From the IMG/VR virus record IMGVR_UViG_3300035180_001680: a DNA stretch of 64,000 bases. One strand, written 5' to 3'. The notes beneath the pieces are model-generated. The model searched no databases. It saw nothing but the letters and a program-made list of their open reading frames with translations, and had not been told where the DNA came from. Shown here piece by piece: positions 16,721-60,154 of the stretch. Position numbers and translations under genes: made by a program. Positions within the stretch are counted from its first letter, which is position 1, and every line of letters begins with the position of its first letter. The stretch comes from a virus. Lineage: Duplodnaviria; Caudoviricetes.

Positions 16721-16805
16721 TGGTCCACCCGGAGGGATTCGAACCCTCATAGTCAAAGACGCGAGATTAAAAGTCTCGTACCGTACCAGTTCGGTGTCGG
16801 ATGGA
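16721..16805 (-). tRNA. tRNA-Lys(UUU), long variable arm
   Basis: CGAGA-CTTTTAA-TCTCG anticodon arm, T-arm, CCA. Confidence 0.85.
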
Positions 16806-16809
16806 AATA

Positions 16810-16883
16810 TGGTACACCGCCACGGTATTGAGCCGTGTTCTACAGGGTAAGAGCCTATTGCATCACCTTAATGCTTGCGGTGC
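16810..16883 (-). tRNA. tRNA-Lys(CUU)
   Basis: ATAGG-CTCTTAC-CCTGT; CCA. Confidence 0.85.
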
Positions 16884-16892
16884 ATTATATTT

Positions 16893-16967
16893 TGGTAGGG
16901 CGCCTGGAATTCGAATCCAGCCTAAAAGATTAAAAGTCTTCTGTGCTTCCGCTGACACTAACACCCC
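16893..16967 (-). tRNA. tRNA-Lys(UUU)
   Basis: GAAGA-CTTTTAA-TCTTT; CCA. Confidence 0.85.
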
Positions 16968-16980
16968 ATTAAATTCCACT

Positions 16981-17069
16981 TGCTCCGGTCCGAGGAATCG
17001 AACCTCGCCTCCTTTCGGAGCCTTCGCATTAACAGTGCGAGACCTTCACCAAGCCAGTCCGACCGGAGC
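16981..17069 (-). tRNA. tRNA-Asn(GUU), long variable arm, no encoded CCA
   Basis: TCGCA-CTGTTAA-TGCGA; V-arm CTCC-GAAA-GGAG. Confidence 0.85.
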
Positions 17070-17080
17070 AAGTGAAACTT

Positions 17081-17154
17081 TGGTAGTCCCTAGAAGAATT
17101 GAACTTCTGTATCTGCCATGTCACGACAGCACTCTACCATTGAGTTAAGGGACT
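17081..17154 (-). tRNA. tRNA-Val(GAC)
   Basis: CTGTC-GTGACAT-GGCAG; CCA. Confidence 0.8.
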
Positions 17155-17160
17155 ATTAAA

Positions 17161-17173
17161 TTTTTAAAGAACA
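17161..17173 (-). promoter_or_regulatory. boxA-like element
   Basis: TGTTCTTTAAAAA between terminator and first tRNA; rrn boxA consensus TGCTCTTTAACA. Confidence 0.65.
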
Positions 17174-17174
17174 T

Positions 17175-17207
17175 AAAAAAAGCCTCGGGAGATTTCTCTG
17201 CCGAGGC
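17175..17207 (-). terminator. Intrinsic terminator of attenuator 1
   Basis: GCCTCGGCAGAG-AAAT-CTCCCGAGGC followed by T7. Confidence 0.9.
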
Positions 17208-17227
17208 CTATTAACTTTTGTTTACTT

Positions 17228-17329
17228 TCAGATGATTAGTTTGATTTCAACAGTCAATGCCTCGGCGTGTGAACGTTTATTATTAACGTTTACATTATTG
17301 ATAAAAATTGGTTTAGTTGAATCGAACAT
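17228..17329 (-). CDS. Leader peptide 1 (Asn/Val/Lys): MFDSTKPIFINNVNVNNKRSHAEALTVEIKLII
   Basis: 33 codons; contains antiterminator GCCGAGGC (17259-17266) complementary to the terminator 5' arm. Confidence 0.85.
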   Translation of the reverse strand: MFDSTKPIFINNVNVNNKRSHAEALTVEIKLII

Positions 17330-17365
17330 TTGTAAATTCTTTAAGTTTGTTAAGTTAGTGTTATA

Positions 17366-17394
17366 AGTATATATGACTTATTTATGAAAGTCAA
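17366..17394 (-). promoter_or_regulatory. tRNA-operon promoter 1 (sigma70 plus embedded late ATAAATA)
   Basis: TTGACT-N17-TATACT with ATAAATA in the spacer; same block at 23326, 36623, 60373. Confidence 0.9.
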
Positions 17395-50906: not shown

Positions 50907-50981
50907 CGGTGCCCAATGTCGGAATCGAACCGACGGTCAAGTGTTTTAGAAGCACCTGCTTTACCATTAAGCCAATTGAGC
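50907..50981 (-). tRNA. Amber suppressor candidate tRNA(CUA)
   Basis: GGTGC-TTCTAAA-ACACT in canonical register. Confidence 0.65.
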
Positions 50982-58805: not shown

Positions 58806-58810
58806 AATTT

Positions 58811-58894
58811 TGGTGCCCCAGACGGGAGTCAAACCCGTAAAAACCTGCGTTCTTAGCGCAGTATCTGTACCAATTTGCATTTGTCACCGGGGGC
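58811..58894 (-). tRNA. tRNA-Leu(AAG), near-duplicate of 59545
   Basis: CTGCG-CTAAGAA-CGCAG; short V-loop. Confidence 0.75.
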
Positions 58895-58906
58895 AATTTA
58901 ACTGTC

Positions 58907-59544: not shown

Positions 59545-59627
59545 TGGTGCCCCAGACGGGAGTCGAACCCGTAAAAACCTGCGTTCTTAGCGCAGTAGCT
59601 GTACCAATTTGCATTTGTCACCAGGGC
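59545..59627 (-). tRNA. tRNA-Leu(AAG)
   Basis: CTGCG-CTAAGAA-CGCAG; CCA. Confidence 0.8.
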
Positions 59628-60035: not shown

Positions 60036-60154
60036 TGGTGGGCATGGTAGGAATCGAACCTACTCACCACGAGGGAACGGATTTAGTCGAGAACACTGGA
60101 AAACCAATGCTCTCTAGTCAGTCCGCCGCGACTCTCCAACTTCGCCGCATGCCC
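60036..60154 (-). tRNA. tRNA-Tyr with a 33-nt hairpin insertion in the anticodon
   Basis: GCGGA-CTG[33 nt]TAAA-TCCGT; Tyr-type body; CCA. Confidence 0.75.

Follow-up and report, generated by a model that had tools for sequence, protein, structure and literature searches.

Codon compensation has been one explanation for the tRNA genes of phages; more recently these genes have been seen as replacements for host tRNAs that defence nucleases destroy (PMC10264068, PMC11555353, PMC11464382). The control of their expression is little discussed. The locus described here raises the question of whether a virus can make the expression of tRNA genes depend on how readily particular codons are decoded. 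A sequence-only reading had proposed that a leader-peptide attenuator stands ahead of a five-gene tRNA array in this phage, and every prediction of that proposal that can be tested at the level of sequence holds. We consider it likely, rather than established, that this locus, one of four related units and here called unit 1, controls its phage tRNA array by ribosome-mediated (leader-peptide) transcription attenuation.

The window, by which we mean the whole 64,000-nt stretch of DNA that was analysed, is the minus strand of a 178,796-bp IMG/VR virus record (178.8 kb). CheckV estimates the completeness of this record at 52%, which at its present length implies a jumbo phage, and the G+C content of the phage is 36.5%. 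The DNA runs that contain the stretch come from sediment and microbial-mat metagenomes only, and no RNA run contains the unit 1 stretch. ARAGORN identifies 38 tRNA genes in the window, all 38 on the minus strand, and relaxed settings add further tRNAs, including Ser(GCU), a third Gln(UUG), Ile(UAU), and an intron-bearing Tyr(GUA). The tRNA region also holds a full-length GOLLD RNA (RF02032; 49463-49908, minus strand; 198.8 bits against a gathering threshold of 150), which sits between tRNA-Met/tRNA(CUA) and tRNA-Ser(UGA). The tRNA with the suppressor-type anticodon CUA (50908-50981, minus strand), named 'Pyl' by ARAGORN and scoring 63.9 bits with the Rfam tRNA model, has its own promoter-like site at 51022-50994 (TTGACA, 17 nt, TAATAT). 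This tRNA hinted at recoding of TAG, an idea we rejected when an ORF-length test gave no sign of it. Elsewhere in the window are a PRPP synthetase gene (28475-29488, minus strand), a short peptide-deformylase-like gene (30674-31105, minus strand), and an IMPDH/GMP-reductase-like gene (62893-63999, plus strand) whose match to a Hint module is below threshold (20.7 bits against a cut-off of 29.7) and which possibly carries an intein.

What, then, lies between the promoter and the tRNA genes? The interval 17175-17394 spans exactly the distance from a -35 hexamer to a U-tract, and the elements below were read from the sequence in the order of transcription:

17366-17394, minus strand: sigma-70-type promoter (TTGACT, 17 nt, TATACT), from the promoter scan.
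17327-17341, minus strand: translation start region, a weak Shine-Dalgarno-like AAGAA followed by TTTACAAATG; the motif TTTACAA(A)ATG is common to the four units.
17228-17329, minus strand: leader ORF of 33 codons plus UGA, from the ORF list and codon analysis.
17276-17299, minus strand: putative regulatory codon run, codons 11-18, encoding N N V N V N N K; seven of eight codons can be decoded by the array.
17269-17293, minus strand: small hairpin AACGUU/AACGUU within codons 13-21, present in both the minimum free energy (MFE) and centroid folds and not overlapping region 2.
17252-17266, minus strand: region 2, the 5' strand of the antiterminator, codons 22-26, from folding and a duplex test.
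17200-17216, minus strand: region 3, the 3' strand of the antiterminator and also the 5' arm of the terminator, from folding and the duplex test.
17175-17209, minus strand: intrinsic terminator, from folding; a 9+3 bp stem capped by a GAAA loop (-18.2 kcal/mol) and followed by U7 (17181-17175).
17157-17173, minus strand: rrn-type boxA-like element, TGTTCTTTAAAAATTTA, which shares 15 of 17 positions with boxA of E. coli rrnB.
16721-17154, minus strand: tRNA array Val(GAC), Asn(GUU), Lys(UUU), Lys(CUU), Lys(UUU), from ARAGORN.

The sequence-only reading had named the same five tRNAs behind the leader, and they are all there, at 17154-16721 on the minus strand; the other elements that it reported for unit 1 likewise lie where it placed them, on that strand. 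The leader ORF, whose start context is AAAGAATTTACAAATG, begins about 30 nt past the predicted transcription start, so that a short ORF near a promoter, one mark by which we judged membership of the attenuator class, is present; translation of the leader is itself inferred and not shown. A second mark, an intrinsic terminator between the leader and the tRNA genes, is also present, and our promoter/terminator scan missed it only because the loop limit of that scan was 8 nt. The gap from the U-tract to the first gene, tRNA-Val(gac) (17154-17081, minus strand), is about 20 nt. Within the array, tRNA-Asn(GUU) (16982-17067, minus strand) lacks an encoded CCA, and its long, class-II-like variable arm forms a separate stem; one tRNA-Lys(UUU) (16721-16804, minus strand) has a variable region of 13 nt; several more tRNAs in the window have lengths of 80-91 nt.

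The cluster of cognate regulatory codons, a third mark of the class, is present in the run and weak over the leader as a whole. Codons 11-18 read AAT AAT GTA AAC GTT AAT AAT AAA in the ORF at 17329-17228, precisely as the sequence-only reading had given them. Under strict wobble the unit 1 array reads AAA, AAG, AAC, AAT, GTC, and GTT, codons that make up 16.8% of those in the long ORFs of the phage, and it can decode seven of the eight codons of the run, the exception being GTA, which Val(GAC) cannot read under these rules. No segment among 300,000 random 32-codon segments of the phage's long ORFs contained at least seven array-decodable codons in eight consecutive positions (P < 3.3e-6), and a stretch of eight Asn, Lys, or Val residues in eight was likewise found in none of 300,000 segments drawn from the phage's own ORFs. 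The codon run in unit 1 thus exceeds chance. Taken over its full length, the leader matches the array at only 10 of 32 codons (P about 0.04), and codons 1-10, as had been noticed, contain no match to the array apart from one Lys.

The leader RNA can adopt two mutually exclusive structures. An octamer at codons 22-24, GCCGAGGC (17266-17259), had been singled out as the complement of GCCUCGGC (17207-17200) in the 5' arm of the terminator, and the complementarity is exact. When the 3' arm of the terminator is left out of the fold, the pairing lengthens to 15 bp and joins 17266-17252 with 17216-17210 and 17207-17200. This antiterminator duplex has a free energy of -23.6 kcal/mol, compared with -9.0 +/- 2.1 kcal/mol in 300 dinucleotide shuffles of the leader, none of which paired as well, and it is the strongest among the 11 units examined in this phage and its relatives. 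Folding both conformers, a check proposed with the original reading, gave an MFE structure that is the terminator fold (-36.1 kcal/mol) or the antiterminator fold (-36.2 kcal/mol), depending on which of two slightly different transcript ends was used. The two folds are thus approximately isoenergetic, and in these folds unit 1 RNA is bistable. An antiterminator that excludes the terminator and that is left free when a ribosome stalls at the regulatory codons is a further mark of the class, and unit 1 has it. The unit lacks a classical 1:2 anti-antiterminator, since its sole upstream hairpin, at 17293-17269, misses region 2; this small hairpin may, by inference, be a pause hairpin for RNA polymerase.

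Unit 1 is not isolated in this genome. The 29-nt promoter block occurs in only four copies in the 178.8-kb record (17394, 23354, 36651, and 60401), and each copy precedes a TTTACAA(A)ATG start, an ORF of 31-33 codons, a terminator, a boxA-like box, and a tRNA array, paralogues that are visible in the sequence itself. When the codons of each leader are scored against each array, the resulting matrix is sharply diagonal for units 2-4. The unit 2 leader matches its own array at 23 of 30 codons, including a matched run of 21 codons, and the other three arrays at 0, 4, and 2 codons; the unit 3 leader scores 20 of 31 against 2, 2, and 2; and the unit 4 leader scores 16 of 30 against 6, 4, and 4, so that units 2-4 match their own arrays at 16-23 codons and others at 0-6. 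Unit 1 scores 10 of 32 against 8, 9, and 4, which bears out the earlier judgement that its match is the least complete of the four. In units 2-4 the agreement extends to the level of isoacceptors: all three Ser codons in the matched run of unit 2 are AGT and its array has Ser(GCU), the unit 3 leader contains all four Thr codons and its array three Thr tRNAs, and the unit 4 leader contains ATA and its array Ile(UAU). The four leader peptides have no sequence in common, only a composition that matches their arrays.

Several features of the sister units deserve separate mention. The first gene of unit 4 is tRNA-Tyr(GUA) (60036-60154, minus strand), which has a 33-nt insertion in the anticodon loop and is found only when ARAGORN is run with introns enabled; the unit 4 leader includes a TAT codon. 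Two near-identical tRNA-like genes at 59545-59627 and 58806-58906 (minus strand), left unnamed by ARAGORN, have the anticodon loop CUAAGAA and would be Leu(AAG), which would decode the CTC codon of the unit 4 leader. Unit 2 has approximately 150 nt of additional, strongly structured 5' untranslated region between its promoter and its leader (23318-23170, minus strand), absent from the other units, and its leader ends in TAG, where suppression would send ribosomes into the unit 2 terminator. The common promoter contains a perfect inverted repeat, TGACTT-N8-AAGTCA, across the -35 hexamer and spacer (17393-17374, 23353-23334, 36650-36631, and 60400-60381, minus strand), which may be an operator for a dimeric regulator. 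This repeat is weakened in two promoters of a 56-kb relative and absent in a 122-kb relative.

How might ribosome position decide between the two structures? Equilibrium folding of the full terminator with a masked ribosome footprint favoured the terminator at almost every ribosome position, from which it follows that the switch must be kinetic, as it is in known attenuators. An equilibrium model cannot describe such a switch, so we replaced it with a model in which the footprint is placed on a transcript that ends just before the 3' arm of the terminator. In this model the antiterminator of unit 1 is predicted to form with P = 0.78 for an A site anywhere in codons 1-17; the value drops to 0.56 at codon 18 and to about 0.1 over codons 19-28. 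A ribosome stalled at Lys codon 18 would already begin to cover region 2. The codon run of unit 1 thereby ends at the edge of the zone in which the array is predicted to be ON, as in units 2-4, where the modelled ON zones stop at codons 23, 16, and 16, near the end of the matched run; for units 3 and 4 the limit falls a few codons before that end. The model ignores steric block by a ribosome within the antiterminator loop, and the ON values at codons 30-34 are an artefact.

These predictions suggest a sequence of events in which both the kinetic choice between structures and the response of read-through to charged tRNA are inferred. Host RNA polymerase would initiate at 17394-17366 and a ribosome would translate the 33-codon leader. 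Were codons 11-17 (Asn, Val, Lys) decoded quickly, the ribosome would move onto codons 19-28 and cover or unwind region 2, allowing the terminator hairpin (17209-17180) to form and transcription to stop at the U-tract. Were the matching charged tRNAs scarce, slow decoding would stall the ribosome upstream of region 2, which would then pair with the 5' arm of the terminator and let polymerase read through. The boxA RNA would then probably recruit host Nus factors, and tRNA-Val, tRNA-Asn, and tRNA-Lys would be made; as these restored decoding, the result would be negative feedback on tRNA supply.

The same model exposes the main rival to this account. With no ribosome present at all, the antiterminator of unit 1 is still predicted at P = 0.78, and because the unit lacks a 1:2 hairpin, an untranslated leader is predicted to be read through and termination would need tight coupling of transcription and translation. 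Units 1, 2, and 4 are all predicted to be ON without translation; unit 3, which has a 1:2 hairpin, is predicted to be classical in this respect and OFF without a ribosome (P = 0.08). Unit 1 could therefore be a genuine translation-coupled attenuator that reports general translation capacity (ribosome availability, initiation, or coupling) instead of specific Asn, Val, and Lys tRNAs, such that any failure of leader translation turns the array ON. The missing hairpin makes this reading plausible for unit 1, and the first 10 codons, unmatched to the array, are what it would lead one to expect; against it, the run of seven decodable codons in eight is far beyond chance and is placed exactly where stalling leaves region 2 free, and the sister units match their own arrays, and not each other's, by codon and by isoacceptor. 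On balance we think it unlikely that general translation capacity is all that unit 1 reports.

Support for specific leader-peptide attenuation also comes from other phages. Using the promoter pattern and a common 293-aa protein, we found three related phage records with lengths of 56, 122, and 257 kb; the 257-kb one also occurs as a 342-kb metagenome contig. The marker protein (29552-30433) had been considered a QueE-like enzyme, an assignment we dropped in the absence of a Pfam match. Orthologues of units 2, 3, and 4 can be recognised in the sequences of the three relatives. A partner for the 5' arm of the terminator lies at codons 18-32 in all 11 units, eight of which have an antiterminator that is equalled in at most 1 in 300 shuffles, and the leader ORF has 31-35 codons in 10 units and 18 in the remaining one. 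The unit 3 pairing covaries, being GCGCUCUU/AAGGGCGC in the present phage and GCCCUUU/AAAGGGC, GCCCUUGG/CCAAGGGC, and GCCUUUUU/AAAAAGGC in the relatives, and the unit 2 pairing changes from CUGGG/CCCAG to CCGGG/CCCGG among phages. In the 257-kb relative, Lys tRNAs belong to a unit-4-type array whose leader has three Lys codons, one AAG and two AAA, which fit Lys(CUU) and Lys(UUU), and a unit-2-type array with Asn and Met tRNAs follows a leader that contains N and M. In the present phage, Asn, Lys(UUU), and Val(GAC) form a separate array behind their own N/K/V leader. Leader content, as read from these sequences, tracks array content between phages.

For unit 1 itself the comparison reaches less far. 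None of the three relatives carries a unit-1-type promoter and leader, so evolutionary support for unit 1 is limited to near-identical strains. Searches for orthologues with the promoter pattern returned one relative and one chance match among viral contigs, and only the 342-kb form of the known relative among metagenome contigs; the terminator pattern gave no match in metagenome contigs. With a neighbouring 212-aa protein as bait we recovered 17 loci, one of which has tRNAs, on the opposite strand, and a pattern for the tRNA-Asn anticodon arm recovered 15 unrelated phages, none with a similar unit.

Natural variants of unit 1 are nonetheless present in contigs of three other metagenome runs. 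C17264U is synonymous (GCC to GCU) and turns a G-C pair of the antiterminator into G.U, while C17200U, on the opposite strand of the helix, also retains its pair as G.U; A17338G improves the Shine-Dalgarno sequence, which becomes AAGGA, as in unit 4. A divergent variant carries an in-frame +3 insertion after 17243 and retains the position of the stop (UGA to UAA), and its changes are mostly non-synonymous and confined to codons 29-32. Frame, stop, and pairings are thus preserved among the variants and the tail of the peptide is not, a pattern consistent with an ORF that is translated for regulation and not with a peptide that has a function of its own.

These observations bear on the idea that unit 1 is a decayed or duplicated copy, with a hairpin that serves as a constitutive leaky terminator or insulator, an N/V/K run that results from AT-richness, and unregulated read-through into the array. 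The weakest codon match of the four units (10 of 32), the weak Shine-Dalgarno sequence, and the lack of an orthologue in the relatives are what decay would leave behind. Yet a decayed copy would not be expected to have the strongest antiterminator of all 11 units, to carry a run that is absent from 300,000 segments sampled from the AT-rich ORFs of this phage, or to preserve frame, stop, and pairs in natural variants, and we regard decay as quite an improbable explanation.

The element between the terminator and the array provides a further clue. Five copies of the sequence TGTTC(T/A)TTAA(A/C)AATTT are present in the record, all of them a few nucleotides 5' of the first tRNA of a cluster, and the unit 1 copy agrees at 15 of 17 positions with the boxA of E. 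coli rrnB (TGCTCTTTAACAATTTA...) as printed in PMC2176067. The sequence mark of the boxA class, an TGCTCTTTAACAA-like consensus on the transcript upstream of an untranslated operon, is present. As in rrn antitermination, where boxA binds NusB/NusE, the element precedes a long untranslated operon of structured RNAs; unlike rrn boxA, it lies in a phage, 5' of a tRNA array and 3' of an attenuator, and its function, including any binding of NusB/NusE and any resistance to Rho, is inferred. In unit 1 it is 3' of the terminator and only 3 nt from the first tRNA. Because boxA acts on RNA made by a polymerase that started upstream, its position after the terminator speaks for transcription of the arrays by way of the attenuator. 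The fifth copy, outside the window (G000:C1:9274-9390, plus strand), precedes a tRNA cluster that has a different, TTGACT-type promoter, a 3-codon mini-ORF (M T Q K), and no terminator.

We had considered the box as a promoter and dropped this assignment in view of its match to rrn-type boxA. The same question underlies the possibility that the promoter, ORF, and terminator make up a stand-alone small gene, for a micropeptide or small RNA, with the tRNAs expressed from a separate start in or near the box. There are no transcript data to rule this out, and the box is AT-rich and near a tRNA. The U-tract, however, ends only about 20 nt before tRNA-Val, the box resembles rrn boxA and not a promoter, and a micropeptide gene would hardly be expected to yield four peptides with nothing in common except a composition matched to the array. 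In the 56-kb relative, moreover, the box stays with the tRNA despite an inserted endonuclease-type gene, which fits an RNA element that acts on transcripts arriving from upstream, without excluding a promoter. A stand-alone gene therefore seems to us very unlikely. The inserted ORF, between a unit-4-type terminator and the boxA/tRNA (L027:276-746, minus strand), is endonuclease-like, with Cys pairs and a His-rich motif.

With respect to known regulatory systems, unit 1 is most readily compared with the multivalent attenuators of enterobacteria, such as the ilvGMEDA leader with its Ile, Leu, and Val codons, and with trpL, hisL, thrL, leuL, and pheL. Like these, it has a short promoter-proximal ORF rich in regulatory codons, an intrinsic terminator, and an exclusive antiterminator whose 5' strand lies just past those codons, and in both cases the position of the ribosome would decide the outcome and one leader would sense several amino acids. 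Unlike them, the phage unit would control tRNAs and not biosynthetic enzymes, with feedback on tRNA supply and not amino-acid supply, and its sister units match their arrays at the level of codon and isoacceptor; unit 1 also differs in having no 1:2 anti-antiterminator, a predicted untranslated default that is ON, and a boxA after the terminator. The attenuator of the E. coli phenylalanyl-tRNA synthetase operon, pheST, with its pheM leader, responds to the level of charged tRNA. It likewise applies leader-peptide attenuation to a gene of the translation apparatus; that gene is a cellular synthetase sensed through a single amino acid, whereas the phage units concern viral tRNA genes and several amino acids per leader.

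T-box riboswitches resemble the phage units in that a conditional terminator/antiterminator reports on tRNA status and regulates translation-related genes, and differ in binding uncharged tRNA directly, with no need for an ORF. The output of unit 1 is tRNA and its codon run could in principle serve as a specifier, so one may ask whether the leader RNA senses uncharged tRNA in a T-box-like manner without translation. No T-box features (a stem I with specifier, the T-box motif) were found by Rfam at E <= 5 anywhere in the window, nor was any other riboswitch, and the start context, the ORF length (31-35 codons in all but one of the 11 units), and the in-frame indel all indicate translation, which leaves direct sensing an extremely remote prospect. 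The closest Rfam matches, His_leader at 17173-17304 (29.8 bits, far below the threshold of 49) and Thr_leader (27.1 bits on unit 2 and 25.6 bits on unit 4, with a threshold of 55), are sub-threshold, which places unit 1 outside all curated families. Full-text literature searches retrieved no paper describing leader-peptide attenuation of tRNA genes, and on the best reading, ribosome-stalling attenuation of tRNA genes, the mechanism is known while its target and its logic are new.

Ribosome-mediated attenuation in unit 1 is supported, in the unit itself, by the promoter, the start context, an ORF of the usual length, the terminator, an antiterminator just past the codon run, and the tRNAs downstream, and, beyond it, by paralogues and orthologues built to the same plan, in which codons match far better and the pairings covary. 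Weighing against it are the absence of RNA or ribosome data, the weak match of the leader as a whole, the weak Shine-Dalgarno sequence (AAGAA), and the lack of a unit 1 orthologue.

The physiological signal to which such a unit would respond remains a matter of inference. The sequence-only reading had pointed out that tRNA-Lys and tRNA-Asn are targets of anticodon nucleases, which is correct as background: PrrC cleaves tRNA-Lys(ttt) (PMC10264068). No sequence feature ties unit 1 to anticodon nucleases, however, and the link, which is untested, is compatible with the data without being needed by a system that covers nearly all amino acids. That the four units jointly have this coverage favours a general sensor of decoding capacity. 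One possibility, which we put forward only tentatively, is that the four attenuators form a codon-resolved, demand-driven circuit for tRNA supply, in which unit 1 would be a dedicated Asn/Lys/Val channel and would replace host tRNAs, tRNA-Lys or tRNA-Asn for instance, once these became depleted by anticodon nucleases or by the phage's AT-rich codon demand. Such a circuit would be an inducible counter-defence that senses damage and not a defence protein.

If our reading of the attenuator is true, the phage gauges how fast each codon is decoded and makes tRNAs as they are needed, and trp-type attenuation reaches beyond amino-acid and synthetase genes to include tRNA genes, and a virus. The reading makes a directly testable prediction from sequence to function, namely which codons switch on which array, and the units may offer a compact natural sensor for the availability of specific tRNAs. 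Should the supply-circuit reading also prove true, each leader would be a miniature test mRNA for the tRNAs encoded behind it.
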